Positions 2 through 20,683 of a stretch of 64,000 nt of DNA are shown here, piece by piece. The stretch is from assembly GCA_965222155.1 (NCBI GenBank), contig CBDCTH010000012.1, forward strand, positions 576,001 to 640,000. Reading direction: 5' to 3'. The translations under genes were made by a program, and so were the position numbers. The notes under the pieces were generated by a model, which had not been told where the DNA came from, searched no databases, and saw only the letters and a program-made list of their open reading frames with translations. This DNA is from Gammaproteobacteria bacterium. Its GTDB lineage: Bacteria; Pseudomonadota; Gammaproteobacteria; Eutrophobiales; Eutrophobiaceae. Numbering within the stretch: position 1 is the stretch's first letter; the number at the start of each line of letters is the position of its first letter.

Positions 2-637
2 AAAATTGGCGCCGTTCATGATCTTAAAGGATTGGTACACCTTCTGGAGTGGGTGAAGGCGTTGAGTAAGTTCGAACACAGCGGCGACTACGGCGTTTTC
101 GCGGACTTACTGACTACGGAGACTGTTGACCGGAACGACATCATAAAGCCTATGCGCCAAGCAGCTTTTTTTGAACGGACCACCCGTGACGCCACGGCAC
201 GAGAGAAAATCAACACGGTCAGGTCTGCGCTGGCCGACATACCGCTACATGGTGTTGCCAGTCTGTTCCAGACAGCACTGAAAGAGCGCTTGGATTGGGC
301 AGGGGGTGACACTCCATACAACCGCCAATGTAAGCTCGCACGCATCTACCTGGACAGGCGCGATTATCTGAGGGCCAGCATCTACGCGCAGGAAGCCTTC
401 ATTACCTATCTCGTTTGTCTAAAAGGGGGTAAACCTGATTCCTATGATGCCCGCGACCAGGCAAAGAAAGACTACGAGAAGGAGGATATATCGCCATCAT
501 ACAAAACCCTCCGGTATATCCGCAATGCGCTCGTTCACGGTACCCGCCCAACTTCGCATCTCAAGAAGACAATGTCTGACGAGACTCAGTTACACGAGGC
601 GATCTCGGCATTTCTTGACGAATTCCCCACCAACTAA
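2..637 (+). CDS. CRISPR type III ancillary CARF-HEPN RNase (Csx1/TIGR02221-like), C-terminal part; runs off window start
   Basis: Frame open from position 2 (KIGAVHDLKGLVHLLEWVKAL...SGDY); HEPN RxxxxH motif RNALVH near C-terminus; cas context. Confidence 0.75.
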   Translation, partial: KIGAVHDLKGLVHLLEWVKALSKFEHSGDYGVFADLLTTETVDRNDIIKPMRQAAFFERTTRDATAREKINTVRSALADIPLHGVASLFQTALKERLDWAGGDTPYNRQCKLARIYLDRRDYLRASIYAQEAFITYLVCLKGGKPDSYDARDQAKKDYEKEDISPSYKTLRYIRNALVHGTRPTSHLKKTMSDETQLHEAISAFLDEFPTN

Positions 638-794
638 GGTGTTCCCAATACTGCCCTCCCTCCCGGCAGGTCTGGTCCCACACTCCCGCGTGACGCGGCA
701 ATGACGTTCTTACTTTGTCAGGCTACTTTGAGAGCGCCGTAAAGCAGTATGGCTACAAAAAAGCATACACCTGCAGTCAGTGCAATAAACGCTA

Positions 795-986
795 TCATAT
801 TTTTCCTACCTCTTTGATGTATCTCTGAATACATACAAAGACGATTAAATTTGCACCACTCAAAACGAAAAGGAGAACTATGCCCATCCAGAAAACCTCG
901 TTGATATTGTTGGCCAGGTACAAACTCACTGGTCCACTTATAATAAGCACAACCAAACCAACAATCACGAAAAACAGGTTGTTCAA
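795..986 (-). CDS. Small hypothetical membrane protein (two hydrophobic segments)
   Basis: 63-aa ORF with two hydrophobic stretches; no recognised family. Confidence 0.35.
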   Translation of the reverse strand: MNNLFFVIVGLVVLIISGPVSLYLANNINEVFWMGIVLLFVLSGANLIVFVCIQRYIKEVGKI

Positions 987-1047
987 AAACGAATTTTTTC
1001 CTTTAATTCGTCAAGTTTCGTCATAGCTTTTGTAGAACAAAGGATGT

Positions 1048-1101
1048 TTCAGGTCATAAGTGCAACAAGTGGTTTGGTTTTGGTATTTTCTGAACCAGTT
1101 C
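1048..1101 (+). repeat. Left copy of ~50-bp imperfect inverted repeat; overlaps a perfect 14+14 bp palindrome at 1082-1111
   Basis: TTCAGGTCATAAGTGCAACAAGTGG...GGTATTTTCTGAACCAGTTC matches reverse complement of 2202-2250; GGTATTTTCTGAAC-CA-GTTCAGAAAATACC is a dyad. Confidence 0.8.
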
Positions 1102-1421
1102 AGAAAATACCTCCCACGGGGTCTAACCAGAAGTTGCAACAGCGGTTATTTGATTTTTATCCAGGCAAACGTCATGAAATACATATCGAGGGATTTGAAA
1201 AGGATCCTATGCGATTAATTTACTTGGACGATACCCATTGCGCCAGAGACGACGTCATCCACAGTGAGATTCGCTTGGCAGTTAATCGCCCCCGTCCCGA
1301 ACCAGCACAAGGCCAGTCACGCCGTACGAAATATAAAAATAATACAGGGTGGGAACAAGGACGCCAAATATGGACCACAACCCGAATTTGACATGATACT
1401 GCATAGCCGTATAATAGAACA

Positions 1422-1742
1422 ATGCGTACGGTTGTTGAAACAAGGATGTTCAGCGCGAAAGCGGCCGAGGTCTGGACTCCTGAGCAATATGAAGACTTTG
1501 TCGTATATATTGCAAGCACCCCTGATGTAGGCCAGGTCGTTCCGGGCTCTGGTGGCGTCAGAAAAATTCGCTGGAGCAGGCAAGGTTCAGGGAAGCGCGG
1601 CGGTGTACGTATAATTTATTTTAACAATTCCGATTATGAAACTTGGCTTCTTGCCATGTATGAAAAGAATGGTCGTGAAATTATTCCAGCCCACGAACTG
1701 AGAAAAATCAGGAATGCAATCAATGACCGGGAAAATGAGTAA
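1422..1742 (+). CDS. Type II TA toxin, RelE/HigB-2 family
   Basis: VVETRMF...GQVVPGSGGVRKIRW...GKRGGVRIIY...LLAMYEKN signature. Confidence 0.9.
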   Translation: MRTVVETRMFSAKAAEVWTPEQYEDFVVYIASTPDVGQVVPGSGGVRKIRWSRQGSGKRGGVRIIYFNNSDYETWLLAMYEKNGREIIPAHELRKIRNAINDRENE

Positions 1743-2004
1743 AGCCGGGCAAGCACTGCTTGATGACGTACTGGCTATCAAGGCGGGCGCGCCGACTAAA
1801 ATCTGGACGCCGGAACAGTTGCTGGTCATTTCCGTACGCAAGCAACTGAAGAAAACCCAATCGGCTTTTTCCAGGTTGTTAGGTATTCCCGTGGCTACGA
1901 TCAGGGATTGGGAGCAAGGGCGTAAACAACCCGACAGTGCTGCCGTAACACTGATTAAAGTGGCGCAAAAGCACCCTGAGGTATTGGAAGATATTGCGGC
2001 TTGA
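1714..2004 (+). CDS. HTH (Xre) antitoxin, HigA-2 type (true start may be 1723 or 1735)
   Basis: TQSAFSRLLGIPVATIRDWEQGRKQP...HPEVL; overlaps toxin end. Confidence 0.9.
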   Translation: MQSMTGKMSKAGQALLDDVLAIKAGAPTKIWTPEQLLVISVRKQLKKTQSAFSRLLGIPVATIRDWEQGRKQPDSAAVTLIKVAQKHPEVLEDIAA

Positions 2005-2201
2005 TTATTGAAGTCACAACTTGATTTGGCGCCGTTCCTGAAGAGAGGCAGATCATACAGCACGATTTGCTTCGACTCGCGACCAGCCTGAAAGTCCTCA
2101 GGCGGCATGGAAAAAACCGCCGCCAACTTCTTTGAAAAGGATATTGAATTGTTCCCCACCGTTTATCCGGCGACTGGTCTCCTTATTGGGAATGTCACAT
2201 A

Positions 2202-2250
2202 GAAGTGGTTCAGAAAAATACCAATCCACTTGTTGCACTTATGACTTGAA
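2202..2250 (-). repeat. Right copy of the inverted repeat flanking the TA cassette
   Basis: Reverse complement TTCAAGTCATAAGTGCAACAAGTGGATTGGTATTTTTCTGAACCACTTC aligns with 1048-1101. Confidence 0.8.
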
Positions 2251-2510
2251 TCCGCCAAGTTTCTTTATATCTTTTGTGGAACAAATGTTAAACTGGAAGC
2301 AGCCGTTAAAATCCGATTGCGGATATCTTTGTAATGTATTTAAGTGCAGGCCTCCGATCCATGTTCAACTTATTATGATAATAAGAGTCACCCACGGCGT
2401 GACCGTGAGGATACAGGAAAACCACATAAGTAACGGCAAGTACCGGAAGCATCCTGAAGCGTTAATACCGGTGATGAATGCAGCGTTTACAGAAGATCGG
2501 GCATAACAGC

Positions 2511-3797
2511 ATGAATAAAACTATCCTGCTTTGTACTGTCGGTGGTTCACACGAGCCGATTCTTACCTCGCTCAGGGAAAACAAGCCTGACTATGTCTGC
2601 TTCATCTGCTCTGGCAAGGACCCGCTTACCGGAAAATCCGGTTCCGACGTGCAGATTAGCGGGCTTGGCAGTGTTATCAAGCAGGATAAGTCTGATGATA
2701 AGCCGACACTCCCCAATATTCCTACCCAGGCAGGACTGGAGAAAGGACAATACGAGGTTATCACAGTCCCGACGGATGATCTGGATAAAGCTTTGAAAAT
2801 AATATGGCAACGCCTGCAGGAATTAACCCAACAGTATCCTGAAGCCCGGGTTATAGCCGATTACACCGGTGGCACCAAATCCATGACTGCCGCACTCGTG
2901 TTGGCGGCAGTAGAAAATGAGAAGGTAGATTTGAAGCTGGTCACCGGCCCCCGTACCAACCTGGTAGGGGTGAAATCCGGTATGGAAACGACAGCACTGG
3001 CAGGTGTTGAAGCCATCCGCACACAACGCGCCGTCAAACAGTTCATCGGTGCTTGGCAGTATTTCGCCTATGGTGAAGCCGCCAAGGGGCTTGCCGGTAT
3101 CAAGCCGAGAGAACCGGGATTAAGGCAAGAGGTGGAGATGTTGCAGCATTTGAGCAGGGCTTTCGATGCCTGGGATCGATTTGCTCACGAACAGGTCGTC
3201 GATATAATCGACACTTATTGCAAGCGGATCGCGCCTGCTCATAAGCACCTGTTGGATTCGATAAGAAATCTCACGACAGTATCAGAACGCCAGGAGCCTG
3301 CCTGTCTACTGGATTTGTGGTTCAATGCCTTGCGCCGCGCCGAGCAGGGACGCTTCGATGATGCGATCGCCCGGCTTTACCGCCTGCTCGAATGGACTGC
3401 TCAGTGGATTTTACAGGTCCATTGCAACATTGACACAGCCGCTATTCCCAAGGACAAAATACCCACCGACATGTGCATACAGCCAAACAGAAAAGGCCAG
3501 TATCAGGCTGGTTTGATGAATGCATGGGGGCTTATCGGACACTGGCTTCCGGATAGCGACGCCGGTCGGTTCAGTAAACAGCAACTGGAATCGCTACAGG
3601 ATCAAATCACCCTGCGTAATCACTCGATACTGGCCCACGGCAATGAACCCATTGATGCGCAGAACTGGCAAAAGTTCAAGCAATGGATTGAGGATAATTT
3701 TCTGACATTATTAACACAGGAAGCAAAAAAGGCGGGTCTTCGCTCAATACCGCAACAGTTACCACAGCGACTTTGGCCAGAGATAGACAACCTGTAA
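2511..3797 (+). CDS. CRISPR-associated CARF-HEPN protein, TIGR02710 (Csm6-like) family
   Basis: CARF motifs LLCTVGGS and ADYTGGTKSMTAAL; DDAIARLYRLLE; HEPN RNHSILAHG. Confidence 0.9.
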   Translation: MNKTILLCTVGGSHEPILTSLRENKPDYVCFICSGKDPLTGKSGSDVQISGLGSVIKQDKSDDKPTLPNIPTQAGLEKGQYEVITVPTDDLDKALKIIWQRLQELTQQYPEARVIADYTGGTKSMTAALVLAAVENEKVDLKLVTGPRTNLVGVKSGMETTALAGVEAIRTQRAVKQFIGAWQYFAYGEAAKGLAGIKPREPGLRQEVEMLQHLSRAFDAWDRFAHEQVVDIIDTYCKRIAPAHKHLLDSIRNLTTVSERQEPACLLDLWFNALRRAEQGRFDDAIARLYRLLEWTAQWILQVHCNIDTAAIPKDKIPTDMCIQPNRKGQYQAGLMNAWGLIGHWLPDSDAGRFSKQQLESLQDQITLRNHSILAHGNEPIDAQNWQKFKQWIEDNFLTLLTQEAKKAGLRSIPQQLPQRLWPEIDNL

Positions 3798-3999
3798 TTA
3801 CAGGTAATAAGGCACTAAGCGGAAAGTAAATCTAATCGGAATTTCCCCATCTGTTGAATTTCGTGCATCAGCTTGACAGACGACTGTCCAGGTGCTTCTC
3901 CCGGGTTATACCAATTCAGGTGACGATAAGCAAAACCAACCCATAGTGGCAAGCTTGCTGACCCGGCAAAACACGTTTCCATGTGATTAACTTGTCGGC

Positions 4000-4281
4000 A
4001 TGAAACGCCACCTTTACCTTGCCGCTTACGACATCAGCAGCCCCAGTCGCCTGCGGGCAGCCCTGTACCTGTTGAAAGGGTTTGCCAGCGGTCGCCAGAA
4101 ATCTGTGTTTGAGTGTTTTCTGACTGGCATTGAACGGCGTGAACTGGTTGAAACGATCAGCGCCATTATCGACCCGGACGAGGACCGGTTCTTGCTCCTG
4201 CCACTGGCCTCCGCTGATGACATTGAAACGCTGGGCAAGGGCGTGGCGCCCACCGATCAGTCTTATTTTTACATCGGCTGA
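4000..4281 (+). CDS. cas2: CRISPR-associated Cas2
   Basis: YLAAYDIS..RL; QKSVFEC; 93 aa. Confidence 0.92.
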   Translation: MKRHLYLAAYDISSPSRLRAALYLLKGFASGRQKSVFECFLTGIERRELVETISAIIDPDEDRFLLLPLASADDIETLGKGVAPTDQSYFYIG

Positions 4282-4286
4282 CTACG

Positions 4287-5252
4287 ATGCTGACACTATT
4301 TATCGACCGCAAAGACCTGCACCTCGAACTGGACAATAAGCGACTCCTTGTGCGGCATTTCGGTAGAGACCCACAAAGCCTGCCGCTGAATATGTTGGAC
4401 CGGATCGTTATTCACAGTCAGGTGACATTGGACAGCCGCCTGTTGGGATCATTGGGTCAACATGGTATAGGCGTGAGTATCATGCACGGCCGTTGCGGGC
4501 AGCGGCGTCTGCAATTATTGTGTCCGGGACACAATGATGCGCGCCGTCGGCTTGCCCAGTATCAGCTTTGGCACGACGCTGACCGACGCTTGAACTGGAG
4601 CCGTCAGTTGGTACAGGCAAAAATTGCGGCGCAACAAAAATTACTACGCGAGGCATTGTCAGGCAGGCCTGACCTTCGCCATCCGCTCAGTACCGCACTG
4701 ACCGGCCTTGCTTCTATTCTGCCCTCTCTGGACAACGCCGTGAGCATAACGGTATTGCGCGGCTTGGAAGGTTCGTCCGCAGCCATTTACTTTACCGGGT
4801 TTCAGCGGTTGTTCGGCGACAGTCTGGATTTTACCGGACGTAATCGTCGTCCGCCGCGGGACCCGGTCAACGCCTGTCTGTCGCTGATTTATACCCTGAT
4901 ACACAATGAGGCAGTGCGCGCCTGTCATGGAGCAGGGCTTGACCCGTTGCTGGGTTTTTACCACGAGCCGGCTTATGGTCGTGAATCGCTGGCCTGTGAC
5001 GTGATCGAACCATTGCGTCCACACGTTGATCGCTGGGTGTGGCACATGTTTCGTAAACGTCTACTGAGTGCAGATAATTTCAGTCGTGAAGGGCAGAGTT
5101 GTTTGCTCAACAAGAGCGGACGCCGAATATTTTTTGAAAGTTATGAAGCGTTCGCCGCCCCATGGCGACGTTATCTGCGCCTGCACAGCTACCGGCTGGC
5201 ACGTGCCTTACTGGATCTGGCCCCCGACTTGCCTGAGGCAGAAACCCCATGA
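4287..5252 (+). CDS. cas1: CRISPR-associated integrase Cas1
   Basis: RGLEG, RNRRPPRDPVNACLSL, GFYH, SLACDVIEPLR with catalytic E/H/D present. Confidence 0.95.
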   Translation: MLTLFIDRKDLHLELDNKRLLVRHFGRDPQSLPLNMLDRIVIHSQVTLDSRLLGSLGQHGIGVSIMHGRCGQRRLQLLCPGHNDARRRLAQYQLWHDADRRLNWSRQLVQAKIAAQQKLLREALSGRPDLRHPLSTALTGLASILPSLDNAVSITVLRGLEGSSAAIYFTGFQRLFGDSLDFTGRNRRPPRDPVNACLSLIYTLIHNEAVRACHGAGLDPLLGFYHEPAYGRESLACDVIEPLRPHVDRWVWHMFRKRLLSADNFSREGQSCLLNKSGRRIFFESYEAFAAPWRRYLRLHSYRLARALLDLAPDLPEAETP

Positions 5253-6013
5253 AGCCCTGTTACATTCATGGTAGGCAGGGTATGCAAATCAGGCTGGATG
5301 GGCCGGTCTTGAGTATCTCTTTCCCTGGACAGGCTGCGGTACTTGCTCCTCTGCGTCGTATTTCCCGTGTCGTTATTTCCGGTTCGCCCGAGTGTTCAAC
5401 TTCGGCTCTGCTTGCCTGTGCAGAACGCGGCATTACGGTCACATTTTTACAGTATGATGGCACAGTCAAGGCGCATCTGTTTGGTCATAGCGGGGCGACA
5501 AATGATTTGTTTGCTCATCTGCGGGATTTGCTGGATCGCCCTGATTGGCCAGAGCGCTATCAGATTTGGTTAGCCGCTGCCACCAGTCGTGCACATCGGG
5601 CGCTGTGCCGTAAATTGGGTTTGCAAGCGGACAGACTGTACCATAAACGGCTTCGCGCAATACTGGACCGTCAGATGGAACAGTTTGTTAATACAGGTCA
5701 GCGGGACTACTTGCAGCGACGTTTACGCGGTCTGTGTGCCAATCTTGCCAACGGTGTATTACAGCAAGCAGGTCTGGATGCCTCGCGTAGTCGTTACCTG
5801 GAGCAACGTCTTGATATACCGGGTGACTTCGCCGATTTATTATCACTGTCTTTACAACTCCCCTTGCTTGATTGGCTAAGCCAGCAGTCGGTGCAAAAGC
5901 GTATTCATGATCATGACGTTATTGCATTATTTGAACGGCACAGTCACCGGTTGGAAGGTATCGCATGTCGTCTGACCAGTCGTTTGCACGGATTTCTGGT
6001 TGATCTCGTATGA
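5249..6013 (+). CDS. Degenerate Cas1 paralogue, probably catalytically inactive
   Basis: Cas1-like N-terminal beta domain (LDGPVL...PLRRISRVVISG...ALLACAERGITVTFL); RGLC in place of RGLE and no catalytic His after AGLD. Confidence 0.7.
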   Translation: MKPCYIHGRQGMQIRLDGPVLSISFPGQAAVLAPLRRISRVVISGSPECSTSALLACAERGITVTFLQYDGTVKAHLFGHSGATNDLFAHLRDLLDRPDWPERYQIWLAAATSRAHRALCRKLGLQADRLYHKRLRAILDRQMEQFVNTGQRDYLQRRLRGLCANLANGVLQQAGLDASRSRYLEQRLDIPGDFADLLSLSLQLPLLDWLSQQSVQKRIHDHDVIALFERHSHRLEGIACRLTSRLHGFLVDLV

Positions 6014-6333
6014 AACAGCGCCTGTACCTCGTCGCTTACGATATTGCAGATCCAAAACGACTTGGACGGGTTGCCAGGTATATGTGCCGGTACGCCTGTC
6101 GGGTACAATATTCCGTATTCGTTGTACAAATGAGTAAACCCCAACTGGCTCATCTGCTATCCGAGCTTGAGACGATTATTGATTCGGATCAGGATGATAT
6201 TCGGGCGTACCCATTGCCTGCCGCGGGTGACGTGGTACTATTAGGCCAACAATTCTTTGCAACGAACACCTTACTGGTGCAGAATGGACATAGCAGGTTG
6301 GAGTTGATTCAAGACTCCGCTGATGATGAGTAA
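6010..6333 (+). CDS. cas2: Second Cas2
   Basis: YLVAYDIADPKRL...RVQYSVF...DDIRAYPL. Confidence 0.92.
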   Translation: MKQRLYLVAYDIADPKRLGRVARYMCRYACRVQYSVFVVQMSKPQLAHLLSELETIIDSDQDDIRAYPLPAAGDVVLLGQQFFATNTLLVQNGHSRLELIQDSADDE

Positions 6334-6524
6334 CACTGCCTGCTGCTCTACAAGATGTGTAAGCTTGACTGGAAACGTATTAACTGCTCTTTCACAATTT
6401 GTTTTTGATTGAATATAACTATAAAAAGTTTTGTTTTGATTATAATCTTACTGTTAACAAGAGGCACATTTTCCTCAACTGACCTTATAACTCATTGTAA
6501 GAAAAATCTTTTCTCCATTGAGGA
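6334..6524 (+). promoter_or_regulatory. CRISPR leader (AT-rich)
   Basis: AT-rich non-coding stretch between cas2 and first repeat. Confidence 0.8.
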
Positions 6525-9500
6525 GTTTGAAACCAAGACCTGATTAAGAAGGGATTAAGACTTGCAATTGCTGCTAGTTGCCGGCTTCTAACGGTTTGAA
6601 ACCAAGACCTGATTAAGAAGGGATTAAGACCCGTTGGCTTGTTCGTGTAGTTCTTGCGCCGGCAACATGGTTTGAAACCAAGACCTGATTAAGAAGGGAT
6701 TAAGACGGACTATCTATGCATATGGTTCCCCGTCGCAGCGTTTGAAACCAAGACCTGATTAAGAAGGGATTAAGACGGACTGTGTAGATTGGTTTCCAGG
6801 TACGCTAATTGGTTTGAAACCAAGACCTGATTAAGAAGGGATTAAGACACAGTGTGTTAGTTTGTATGACAGCAAAGTTTTTTGTTTGAAACCAAGACCT
6901 GATTAAGAAGGGATTAAGACGGTTCCATCACCTTGTACATTGCCGGGTTACCTGCGTTTGAAACCAAGACCTGATTAAGAAGGGATTAAGACTTGTTTTA
7001 CTGTTTGTTTGGTCGTCGTTCCATCCCGTTTGAAACCAAGACCTGATTAAGAAGGGATTAAGACTGTAAATATGCTGCGGTATTGTATGTTTGCTCTGTT
7101 TGAAACCAAGACCTGATTAAGAAGGGATTAAGACCTATTTTTCTCAGTCCTTCTTTCATTTGCTGGTCCAGGTTTGAAACCAAGACCTGATTAAGAAGGG
7201 ATTAAGACGTCTGTTTTTTCTTTCAGCATCACACCCAGGGCAGTGTTTGAAACCAAGACCTGATTAAGAAGGGATTAAGACTAGTTGCCTTCTCGTCATA
7301 TGCTGTCACTACGTTTCCATGTTTGAAACCAAGACCTGATTAAGAAGGGATTAAGACGTTACTTTTTCGATGTGCTGCGGGTTGTATTCCGGGTTTGAAA
7401 CCAAGACCTGATTAAGAAGGGATTAAGACCTAAAGTTATATACCCCACCCCTTACTTTTTCGTACAGTTTGAAACCAAGACCTGATTAAGAAGGGATTAA
7501 GACGGCACGATTTTTGTGGCGAGGCGCTTGCCGTTGACTTTGTTTGAAACCAAGACCTGATTAAGAAGGGATTAAGACCCCGTTTCGTCGGGCTCACTTG
7601 GCCAGCAGTGTCCAGTTTGAAACCAAGACCTGATTAAGAAGGGATTAAGACAGCACTGTCCAGACGCATTGACATAGAGTAGGCGAGGTTTGAAACCAAG
7701 ACCTGATTAAGAAGGGATTAAGACGCATTTTTTTCATGTGGTCTTTTGTTTCTTCAGGCAGTTTGAAACCAAGACCTGATTAAGAAGGGATTAAGACGAC
7801 CGTACGGGATTCGGGTCGTTGTGGTGTTCTGAGTTTGAAACCAAGACCTGATTAAGAAGGGATTAAGACGACAATAGGTTTCTCCGTCTTCGATGTCTGT
7901 TATTAGTTTGAAACCAAGACCTGATTAAGAAGGGATTAAGACAACCACAGGCCATTCCGCAGGCCATCGGAAGGCACTCTAAGTTTGAAACCAAGACCTG
8001 ATTAAGAAGGGATTAAGACACAGCTGTCTTGACGGCTTCCGACTTGATAGCGTCGTTTGAAACCAAGACCTGATTAAGAAGGGATTAAGACCCAGTATCT
8101 TTTTCATCAGTTGTTCCGCCCTCTCCGCGTTTGAAACCAAGACCTGATTAAGAAGGGATTAAGACACTGTTTTCATGATATACCCTCTCTGGGTTGATGG
8201 GTTTGAAACCAAGACCTGATTAAGAAGGGATTAAGACTTTCTGCGTGCAGCTCGTCCCGATCTTTGCTCACGCTGTTTGAAACCAAGACCTGATTAAGAA
8301 GGGATTAAGACGACAAATACAGAAGCTTATCCTGTACGAGGCCGTACGTTTGAAACCAAGACCTGATTAAGAAGGGATTAAGACGTGAGGGCCTTCTTGA
8401 CAGCTGCCTTGACGGCATCCGTTTGAAACCAAGACCTGATTAAGAAGGGATTAAGACGGTCTATCTCCGACTTGTATCTGCTTTTGACTTTTTCGTTTGA
8501 AACCAAGACCTGATTAAGAAGGGATTAAGACCATAATAAATAATATGCACCTCTCGGCGATTGCTCTGTTTGAAACCAAGACCTGATTAAGAAGGGATTA
8601 AGACAGAAGCGTTTCCTGTATAGCCTTGTACGGGATTTGGGTTTGAAACCAAGACCTGATTAAGAAGGGATTAAGACTGTAGTACCTTGACGGTACTTTT
8701 AGATTTATCCCTGCGTTTGAAACCAAGACCTGATTAAGAAGGGATTAAGACCCGTCACCAGCATGCGTATCCTTAATTTCACTATCGTTTGAAACCAAGA
8801 CCTGATTAAGAAGGGATTAAGACGTCAGGCTTGGTCGCTCGTCTTGGTTTGAAACCAAGACCTGATTAAGAAGGGATTAAGACCCAGTCTTTGGTTTGCT
8901 ATTGCGTTACGTGTCAAAGTTTGAAACCAAGACCTGATTAAGAAGGGATTAAGACGAACTGGTACGTTCTTTACTTTTGCCCGCATTGTTTGAAACCAAG
9001 ACCTGATTAAGAAGGGATTAAGACTTCTTGTAGTAGAACACCAGCACCTGTTCGCCATTATTGTTTGAAACCAAGACCTGATTAAGAAGGGATTAAGACT
9101 ATCGAATCAATCATCACTCTTACATCGCTTACGTTTGAAACCAAGACCTGATTAAGAAGGGATTAAGACGTCACGAGCATAGAATACATGCCCATTCCCC
9201 TCATGGTTTGAAACCAAGACCTGATTAAGAAGGGATTAAGACCAATCTCTGATCTTGTCATTCCGCTTTTTCTGCGCATGGTTTGAAACCAAGACCTGAT
9301 TAAGAAGGGATTAAGACTCTCTAGCTGCTTTCCTTGCCAGTCCACGTCAAACCGCTGTTTATCTAACCTAGGTTTGAAACCAAGACCTGATTAAGAAGGG
9401 ATTAAGACCTATAGTAAGTTAATCGAATCTTGACCGTAGCGTAAGTTTGAAACCAAGACCTGATTAAGAAGGGATTAAGACCCAACATATCGTAATCTAA

Positions 9501-10353
9501 TTTCTGCTTGACAACTGTTTGAAACCAAGACCTGATTAAGAAGGGATTAAGACTGCACATAGATATCGTTAGTTCTTCTCTCTGGAATAGTTTGAAACCA
9601 AGACCTGATTAAGAAGGGATTAAGACACTGAACATAACGTGTATTGCGTATTCCTCAATAAGTTTGAAACCAAGACCTGATTAAGAAGGGATTAAGACCT
9701 TTCCAATACCAACACGCTTCATTAAGCCGCTGAGAGTTTGAAACCAAGACCTGATTAAGAAGGGATTAAGACCAATAATTTTTGTCGTTACTCAGGGTTA
9801 TTACTGCGTTTGAAACCAAGACCTGATTAAGAAGGGATTAAGACACATGCTTATTTATGTGGACTAAACCAACCACCTCTCGTTTGAAACCAAGACCTGA
9901 TTAAGAAGGGATTAAGACCTTGGACTACTTGCTTAGTTGTTAGGTCTTGGTTTGGTTTGAAACCAAGACCTGATTAAGAAGGGATTAAGACCTTCCCCTA
10001 AGTAACCGGCGCCGAACGCCTACGTTTGAAACCAAGACCTGATTAAGAAGGGATTAAGACCCTCCTGCGTGCGTCATCTGGTAGGAAACTTGACCCTTCG
10101 TTTGAAACCAAGACCTGATTAAGAAGGGATTAAGACGAGATCGGTGACATCCACTTTCAGGGTAATGATCTGTTTGAAACCAAGACCTGATTAAGAAGGG
10201 ATTAAGACTGGACGGCTTGGCGCACCTCTGTATTCTGGCTGGCGTTTGAAACCAAGACCTGATTAAGAAGGGATTAAGACACTGCCGGAGCTTTTTTATA
10301 CTTCTTCCACTCCGTCGTTTGAAACCAAGACCTGATTAAGAAGGGATTAAGAC
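6525..10353 (+). CRISPR. CRISPR array, 53 repeats of 37 bp (GTTTGAAACCAAGACCTGATTAAGAAGGGATTAAGAC), 52 spacers
   Basis: Invariant repeats counted by hand; spacers mostly 32-40 nt with one of 23 and one of 54; 3' ATTAAGAC tag and leader position give + orientation. Confidence 0.98.
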
Positions 10354-20540: not shown

Positions 20541-20683
20541 CAGTTGGAAATGGCTCTACGTCATTCCGGCGCCTGCCGGAATCCAGTTGAAATGGCTCTA
20601 CGTCATTCCGGCGCCTGCCGGAATCCAGTTGAAATGGCTCTATGTCATTCCGGCGCCTGCCGGAATCCAGTTGAAATCGCTCT
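20541..20683. repeat. Tandem 42-bp REP-like palindromic repeats (about 3.4 copies), with an interrupted inverted copy at ~20731-20810
   Basis: CAGTTGAAATGGCTCTACGTCATTCCGGCGCCTGCCGGAATC repeated. Confidence 0.9.

Follow-up and report, generated by a model that had tools for sequence, protein, structure and literature searches.

In the solved complexes of the canonical Cas1-Cas2 integrase, only one of the two protomers in a Cas1 dimer carries out catalysis. The module under study here, the cas2a-cas1-cas1'-cas2b operon of a type III CRISPR-Cas locus, lies in a 64,000-nucleotide (nt) stretch of the genome of a Gammaproteobacteria bacterium of the Eutrophobiaceae (GenBank assembly GCA_965222155.1, contig CBDCTH010000012.1, positions 576,001 to 640,000 of the forward strand; hereafter the window). 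It resembles the canonical integrases (8d3l, type I-C; 7mi4, type I-G Cas4/Cas1-Cas2; 7cr6, Synechocystis; 5ds4, E. coli) in having a full-length Cas1, a bona fide Cas2 pair, an adjacent leader and array and, in Cas1', a second protein predicted to have the two-domain Cas1 fold. It differs from them in encoding four distinct subunits where they have two, in the absence of the catalytic Glu and His from one of its Cas1-fold subunits, and in a Cas2 pair that is drawn from two old paralogue clades. We tentatively read the module as a heteromeric integrase, in which a probable Cas2a/Cas2b core would be served by Cas1 as the sole catalyst and Cas1' would be a facultative, non-catalytic subunit.

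Only one functional precedent for two Cas2 genes was found, the type III-associated adaptation operon RT-Cas1-Cas2A-Cas2B of Vibrio vulnificus YJ016, in which deletion of either Cas2 abolished acquisition and for which a Cas2A/Cas2B heterodimer was proposed (PMC6821258). The comparison is by analogy only. Unlike the Vibrio protein, the Cas1 of the window carries no reverse transcriptase, the cas2 genes here flank cas1, and the Vibrio operon lacks a second Cas1. A looser functional analogy is offered by Cas4-Cas1-Cas2 (e.g. 7mi5, 'Asymmetrical PAM-Non PAM prespacer bound Cas4/Cas1/Cas2 complex', where PAM is the protospacer adjacent motif), in which an extra subunit makes the ends of the core unequal; Cas4 is described as setting PAM and orientation (PMC9048733). 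Cas4 is however an unrelated, active RecB-like nuclease, whereas Cas1' is a dead Cas1 paralogue, and Pfam and NCBIfam searches gave no Cas4-like gene or domain within the four-gene operon of the window, the flanks of related loci not having been screened for Cas4. As for Cas1' itself, the PADLOC profile PDLC01185, 'Cas1, diverged variant, second in the loci', describes the same family and the same position in the locus, while its label is silent on function, partners and the second Cas2. Full-text literature searches turned up no publication that deals with an inactive second Cas1 or with genes in the order cas2-cas1-cas1-cas2, and the text matched by 'diverged cas1' in a 2025 classification paper deals with Cas10 (PMC12669027). 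The four-gene set is widespread and catalogued by a profile label, and no functional study of it was found.

The four genes form a single coupled operon on the plus strand, placed before a 53-repeat CRISPR array. cas2a (4000..4281) encodes a Cas2 of 93 amino acids (aa) from a divergent clade and is separated by 5 nt from cas1 (4287..5252), which encodes a 321-aa integrase of the active type; cas1' (5249..6013) encodes the 254-aa non-catalytic paralogue and cas2b (6010..6333) a 107-aa Cas2 of the ordinary type. The start codons of the last two genes overlap the stop codons of the genes before them (ATGA at 5249-5252 and 6010-6013), so that the coordinates and the tight coupling put forward in the original prediction are confirmed. 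Promoter and terminator scans over positions 3700-6600 gave signals at or below shuffled expectation. Cas1 matches PF01867 across 282 of 283 profile positions (4.3e-76), this being its only Pfam match, with no reverse transcriptase domain of the kind that defines RT-Cas1 proteins, and it scores 204.4 bits against TIGR00287 (cut-off 71.7). Its closest solved structure is the type I-C Cas1 8d3l (3.9e-53), and all 15 orthologues compared share the residues E161, H226, D238 and E241.

In Cas1', PF01867 is matched at residues 9-88 only (7.6e-9, 35.6 bits, cut-off 22.3), and the score against the equivalog TIGR00287 (26.2 bits) is under the cut-off of 71.7. Likeness to Cas1 is strongest in the N-terminal domain, the part through which solved Cas1 proteins dimerise. 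The best family is PDLC01185 (8.8e-16), matched by residues 10-236 over profile positions 7-224 (218 of 246), and the same profile also comes out on top for each of 55 diverse members of the Cas1' family (best value 3.8e-26); the kind is therefore already catalogued. Its label is appropriate, as a canonical cas1 lies directly upstream of cas1' in the window and in 18 of 18 genome loci. When PDLC01185 was run over 401 genomes of the phylum of the window, a match to most of the profile (7-224) occurred in the genome of the window only; one other genome matched positions 1-191 within a 325-aa frame, and in the other 12 the match was confined to the N-terminal part, as would be expected of ordinary Cas1. 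Profile-profile alignment (hhalign) relates Cas1' to its partner Cas1 over the full length with a probability of 97.2%, with an internal deletion that takes out the Cas1 stretch RGLEG...RRPPRDPVNA; around 40 residues about RRPPRDPVNA are missing from Cas1', which reshapes the C-terminal domain.

The catalytic residues were compared using the 15-orthologue Cas1 alignment, a 55-sequence Cas1' alignment and profile alignments. In the latter, the region of Glu161 is deleted or replaced in Cas1', His226 pairs with Leu184, D238 with Asp193 and E241 with Asp196 of the window protein. The Glu-His-Asp/Glu set that characterizes catalytic Cas1 is hence incomplete in Cas1', and the C-terminal half of the 55-sequence alignment contains no acidic or His column conserved to 90%. 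It had been proposed that RGLC in Cas1' stands for RGLE in Cas1 and that the catalytic His is lacking. The absence of both Glu and His stands, whereas the correspondence of the motifs (RLRGLC in Cas1', LRGLEG in Cas1) was not reproduced: hhalign deletes the RGLEG region and does not pair RGLC with RGLE, and the likeness may therefore be coincidental. A different situation is found in the second Cas1 copies of two early-branching metagenome loci, L116 (5013-5870) and L124 (3673-4491), in which the RGLE region does align, with Ser replacing Glu; here the catalytic His and Asp are kept, both Glu are lost, and the Cas1 and Cas1' profiles score about equally. Judged by their residues, these copies may represent an intermediate in the loss of activity.

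An AlphaFold2 model of Cas1' (predicted local distance difference test, pLDDT, 94.7; predicted template modelling score, pTM, 0.89) has strands at residues 2-77 and helices at 86-253, i.e. the two-domain organization of Cas1. Its best structural match is Thermotoga maritima Cas1 (4xtk_B), with Z 21.5 and a root mean square deviation of 2.8 A over 248 of 254 residues (model 1-254 against 1-313), and thus the structural similarity to Cas1 on which the original prediction had staked itself was found. All the Foldseek matches among those listed are Cas1 or casposase, and so are 50 of the 50 entries listed by a second structural alignment. On the predicted model, therefore, Cas1' has the whole of the Cas1 fold but neither the catalytic Glu nor the catalytic His. 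Foldseek TM-scores to this model vary between chains of one and the same entry (4xtk_D 0.75 and 4xtk_E 0.42; 8hi1_B 0.61 and 8hi1_A 0.44), so that the predicted domain orientation of Cas1' resembles one of two protomer conformations. Prediction of a Cas1 plus Cas1' complex scored 0.08 and 0.04, the mark being 0.32, with no control pairs, and is not evidence either way.

Although Cas1' has lost its catalytic Glu and His and carries an internal deletion, and although broken copies do occur occasionally in metagenome-assembled genomes (MAGs), one with a frameshift near the Cas1' C-terminus (L014) and another 20 aa shorter (L002), the view that it is a functionless, decaying duplicate is hardly credible and we reject it on the grounds of selection and fold. 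Indeed, the ratio of nonsynonymous to synonymous substitution rates (dN/dS) over nine locus pairs lies between 0.09 and 0.37 for cas1', in all nine, and between 0.08 and 0.35 for cas1; the frame is intact, and a length of 245-285 aa is kept at identities down to around 25-30%. The confident fold model and the single-origin clade described below argue in the same direction. cas1' is thus a genuine gene under the same purifying selection as cas1, in agreement with the earlier suggestion that it does not look like decay. The family is also large: a word-indexed search gave 64 relatives with identities down to 30%, all but three of them 242-276 aa long, and a HMMER profile search of 1.84 billion representatives gave 1004 matches at E<=1e-3, 627 at <=1e-10 and 200 at <=1e-30, the best 150 being mostly 240-285 aa long and covering nearly the whole profile. 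A tblastn search of a plasmid collection with Cas1' gave no match.

Both small proteins of the operon are members of the Cas2 family. PF09827 is matched by Cas2a with 4.4e-11 and 43.2 bits and by Cas2b with 3.9e-19 and 69.1 bits (cut-off 23.8), TIGR01573 with 25.9 and 44.9 bits, respectively (cut-off 24.5), and D11 is invariant in both alignments; the Cas2a profile furthermore matches the solved Cas2 7mi4_E (4.5e-11). The two share 38% identity over 87 residues (hhalign probability 99.2%), and fall into separate clades, so the divergence noted earlier between the two proteins is well borne out. In a Cas2 tree of 177 rows, the Cas2a clade gathers proteins of 92-97 aa that are encoded at the upstream position and carry D11 and a QKS..EC motif, whereas the downstream Cas2b proteins group with ordinary Cas2 outgroups, apart from Cas2a (Shimodaira-Hasegawa-like approximate likelihood ratio test, SH-aLRT, 98). 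Mislabelled rows aside, only the metagenome locus L115 breaks the match between position and clade. The tree places Cas2a and Cas2b as old, distinct and co-inherited paralogue clades. With automatic start and stop calls over 83 loci, the median length of Cas2b is 110 aa with cas1' (n=60) versus 97 aa without (n=23), that of Cas2a being 94 aa in both; this is a weak hint of a link between Cas1' and Cas2b.

The arrangement recurs well beyond the window. Searching with Cas1' identified 18 genome loci, from two Nitrospirales MAGs and from Gammaproteobacteria (among them Competibacteraceae, Plasticicumulans, Sedimenticola, Thiocapsa, Thiodictyon and Thiohalocapsa, with one MAG labelled Burkholderiaceae). 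In all 18, cas1 is directly upstream and cas2b downstream of cas1', and cas2a is kept in 17; the 4-nt overlap between cas1 and cas1' is present in 12 of 19 loci, counting the window. Such a conserved order is not due to chance. The exceptions are one locus without cas2a and with a truncated cas1 (L004), one with a broken cas1 frame (L008) and the frameshifted L014, whose apparent gene fusion we rejected for that reason. A Cas2a-type gene (at least 100 bits) was found in 28 of 401 sampled genomes from the class of Thiocapsa sp. KS1, this strain included; 25 of these 28 gammaproteobacterial loci read cas2a-cas1-cas1', one lacks cas1', one is cut and one degraded. Type III effector or accessory genes are present in 31 of 33 related loci of at least 8 kb.

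A distinct scenario resulted from the metagenome loci, which were found through the active Cas1 (the best 80 of at least 589 relatives). Six of the 80 are too short to be classified, and among the 74 decidable ones two Cas2 genes flank cas1 in every case, whereas Cas1' is there in only part: 51 have cas1', comprising 41 complete four-gene sets, nine sets cut by contig ends and a single one in another order, and 23 have cas2a-cas1-cas2b without cas1', with a gap between cas1 and cas2b of -10 to 121 nt. The differently ordered locus, L115, reads cas1-cas2a-cas1'-cas2b, with cas2a immediately before cas1'.

The origin of this distribution was examined in a Cas1 tree of 103 rows, rooted on five ordinary Cas1 and obtained by a careful search with an incompletely settled bootstrap. 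The clade with two Cas2 genes has a support of 100/100, and its first branch holds L116 and L124, both with a second Cas1. The next branch is an 18-row clade in which cas1' is present in none (99/94), and its 78-row sister clade comprises 67 loci with cas1', five without and six undecided, the five being nested within cas1'-bearing clades. Presence and absence of cas1' require six changes on this tree (6 to 6 in the bootstrap trees). In a joint tree of Cas1 and Cas1', built by a quick search, all Cas1' and the second copies of L116 and L124 make up one clade (SH-aLRT 99), with L116 and L124 sister to the remainder. The pairwise distances of Cas1 and Cas1' are correlated over 59 loci (Mantel r 0.82, a value that none of 999 permutations attained), and Cas1' evolves faster, with a mean p-distance of 0.74 versus 0.53 for Cas1. 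The simplest history is one old duplication, after which catalytic residues disappeared step by step and the gene was passed on together with cas1, with one deep loss and about five recent ones. Cas1' has a single origin, and it was lost at least six times.

The modules that lack cas1' nevertheless have arrays, of up to 48 repeats, and these belong to the same family of 36-37-nt repeats ending GGGATT(A/G)AGAC. The mean spacer length is 33.7 nt with Cas1' (standard deviation 1.2; 36 arrays) and 33.1 nt without (standard deviation 1.1; 16 arrays). Many loci, with and without cas1', also share a leader motif, CAACCCCC-T-TGCAAG followed by TTG, around 45 nt upstream of the first repeat, which could be a promoter or an anchoring site for the integrase. 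The same repeat, leader motif and spacer length being found without cas1', the spacing of the active sites and the integration target are independent of Cas1'.

In the heteromeric integrase that we tentatively favour, the 321-aa Cas1 would provide all of the integration chemistry, a heterodimeric bridge of Cas2a and Cas2b would most likely replace the usual Cas2 homodimer, and Cas1' would most likely join the complex as a facultative, non-catalytic subunit. Its N-terminal dimerisation domain would probably let it occupy the position of the non-catalytic protomer, or dock as an extra Cas1-like dimer, and it would probably tune the capture or choice of substrate rather than the geometry of integration. 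The similar spacer length with and without Cas1' is consistent with a subunit that does not alter the spacing of the active sites, and the losses fit either a facultative Cas1-fold subunit that spares the core geometry or a factor beside the core. A number of points weigh against this proposal. Since cas1' was lost while cas2a-cas1-cas2b and the arrays persisted, integration in those lineages can do without Cas1'. Of the cis-features compared, namely repeat family, leader motif and spacer length, none follows the presence of cas1'. A search of proteins of at least 484 aa, in itself weak evidence, gave no fusion of Cas1 to Cas1' or of Cas1' to Cas2, and the Cas1' relatives listed are at most 302 aa long. 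Both the Cas1 and the joint trees have long, compositionally odd branches flagged by the tool. Finally, the protein-protein contacts, the stoichiometry and the contribution of Cas1' are all inferred, and V. vulnificus would support a Cas2a/Cas2b heterodimer by analogy only.

The same evidence bears on more demanding versions of the idea. Were the division of labour strict, as the original prediction had it in assigning the catalytic and non-catalytic roles to two genes, Cas1 and Cas1' would form an obligate heterodimer with Cas1' permanently as the non-catalytic protomer, and the integrase would be inert without it. The coupling of the genes, their co-divergence, the full Cas1 fold with lost catalytic residues and the single catalytic protomer per Cas1 dimer in solved complexes are all in its favour, but we consider it decidedly unlikely and an obligatory split is not supported: cas2a-cas1-cas2b stands without cas1' in 23 of 74 metagenome loci and in 1 of 28 gammaproteobacterial genome loci, at least six changes of presence and absence are needed, five of the cas1'-less loci are nested among carriers, and their arrays are alike in repeat family and reach 48 repeats. 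Clearly, the cas1'-less modules with arrays imply that a close relative of this Cas1 works without Cas1', which argues against an obligate split of roles. An asymmetric integrase that tolerates the absence of Cas1' is also on the unlikely side, if less so. There a Cas2a/Cas2b heterodimer would bridge Cas1/Cas1' heterodimers, or would link an active Cas1 dimer to a Cas1' dimer at the opposite end, and the unequal ends would tell the two prespacer ends apart, setting spacer orientation or source for an RNA-targeting type III system that uses no PAM; the lineages without cas1' would then hold a less selective, Cas1-only form.

Alternatively, Cas1' could act apart from the core as a homodimer, be it as a nucleic-acid-binding factor in prespacer capture or in a link to type III interference, as a regulator, or as a dominant-negative brake on Cas1. 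Its dispensability in evolution, its faster divergence compared with Cas1, the C-terminal domain reshaped by the deletion of about 40 residues and a spacer length unchanged by its presence would all be compatible with such a role. However, cas1 and cas2b always enclose the gene, in many cases with stop/start overlaps, its divergence has paralleled that of cas1 from the base of the clade onwards, and neither repeats nor leaders hold a DNA motif specific for Cas1'; we thus regard a separate factor as possible but doubtful, and retain the facultative subunit of a heteromeric integrase as our working proposal.

This module touches on an open question, namely by what means type III systems, for which no PAM serves as a guide, select their spacers and give them an orientation; the open state of type III adaptation is itself the subject of a review (PMC9048733). 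The repeated loss of Cas1' amounts to a natural deletion experiment. If the proposed reading is true, a natural Cas1 pseudo-enzyme together with a Cas2 heterodimer would offer handles on the roles of the catalytic and non-catalytic Cas1 protomers and on the question whether an integrase can be made asymmetric, and would be of relevance to Cas1-Cas2 molecular recorders. An experimental test is made practical by two cultured carriers, Plasticicumulans lactativorans DSM 25287 (L011) and Thiocapsa sp. KS1 (L017).

In the window, the operon is followed by a leader of 191 nt (6334..6524, plus strand), read in the sequence from cas2b to the first repeat, and by the array itself (6525..10353, plus strand), for which Tandem Repeats Finder and our own scans gave 53 copies of a 37-nt repeat ending GGGATTAAGAC and a median spacer of 36 nt. 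No second array with this repeat was found in the genome, and no self-targets. Outside this locus, the genome has three more cas1 genes (C12:2250123-2250980, 3362390-3363250 and 3054169-3054849, one of them within a 578-aa open frame), and the organism therefore has other CRISPR-Cas systems. Upstream of the operon, Pfam and NCBIfam searches identified in the window a TM1812-like gene, a RelE/Xre pair and, at 2478..3797 on the plus strand, a CARF-HEPN accessory gene (TIGR02710 / Csm6-family HEPN; TIGR02710 1.3e-57, 195.6 bits, cut-off 83.9; PF09670 9.8e-22). The 20 kb that precede the window hold Cas6 and a Cas_NE0113 protein, a Cmr set made up of Cmr2 (PF12469 1.5e-32), Cmr3, Cmr4, Cmr5 and Cmr6 plus Card1, and a Csm set made up of Cas10/Csm1 (TIGR02578 3.8e-209), Csm2, Csm3 and Csm4. 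Cas10 and Cmr/Csm subunits thus adjoin the adaptation operon, as in a type III CRISPR-Cas locus, and with both a Cmr and a Csm set upstream of a single operon and array, the locus is a composite of types III-B and III-A that share them.

The two sets, III-B (Cmr2-6, Card1) and III-A (Cas10/Csm1, Csm2-4 and a further RAMP protein), stand in tandem over C12:556001-576000 of the genome (82-19233 of that stretch) and window positions 2-3797, with one Cas6 for both. At least four CARF-type accessory genes are present at the locus, namely NE0113, Card1, a Csx1-CARF/TM1812-like gene and the TIGR02710 gene. Between cmr2 and cmr3 there is an open reading frame for a 120-aa HepT-like RNase toxin (6919-7281 of C12:556001-576000), whose score of 58 bits against NF047751 is slightly below the cut-off of 60. 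The RelE/MqsA-Xre toxin-antitoxin pair (window 1422-2004) is bracketed by an element of around 50-75 nt (1048-1124) and its inverted copy (2202-2256), of which about seven further copies with 75-96% identity exist in the genome; the element looks like a small mobile repeat, or one akin to a miniature inverted-repeat transposable element (MITE), within the CRISPR locus. Further downstream, at 20541-20683 of the window, there is a tandem repeat with a 42-nt unit in 3.4 copies, with 97% matches.

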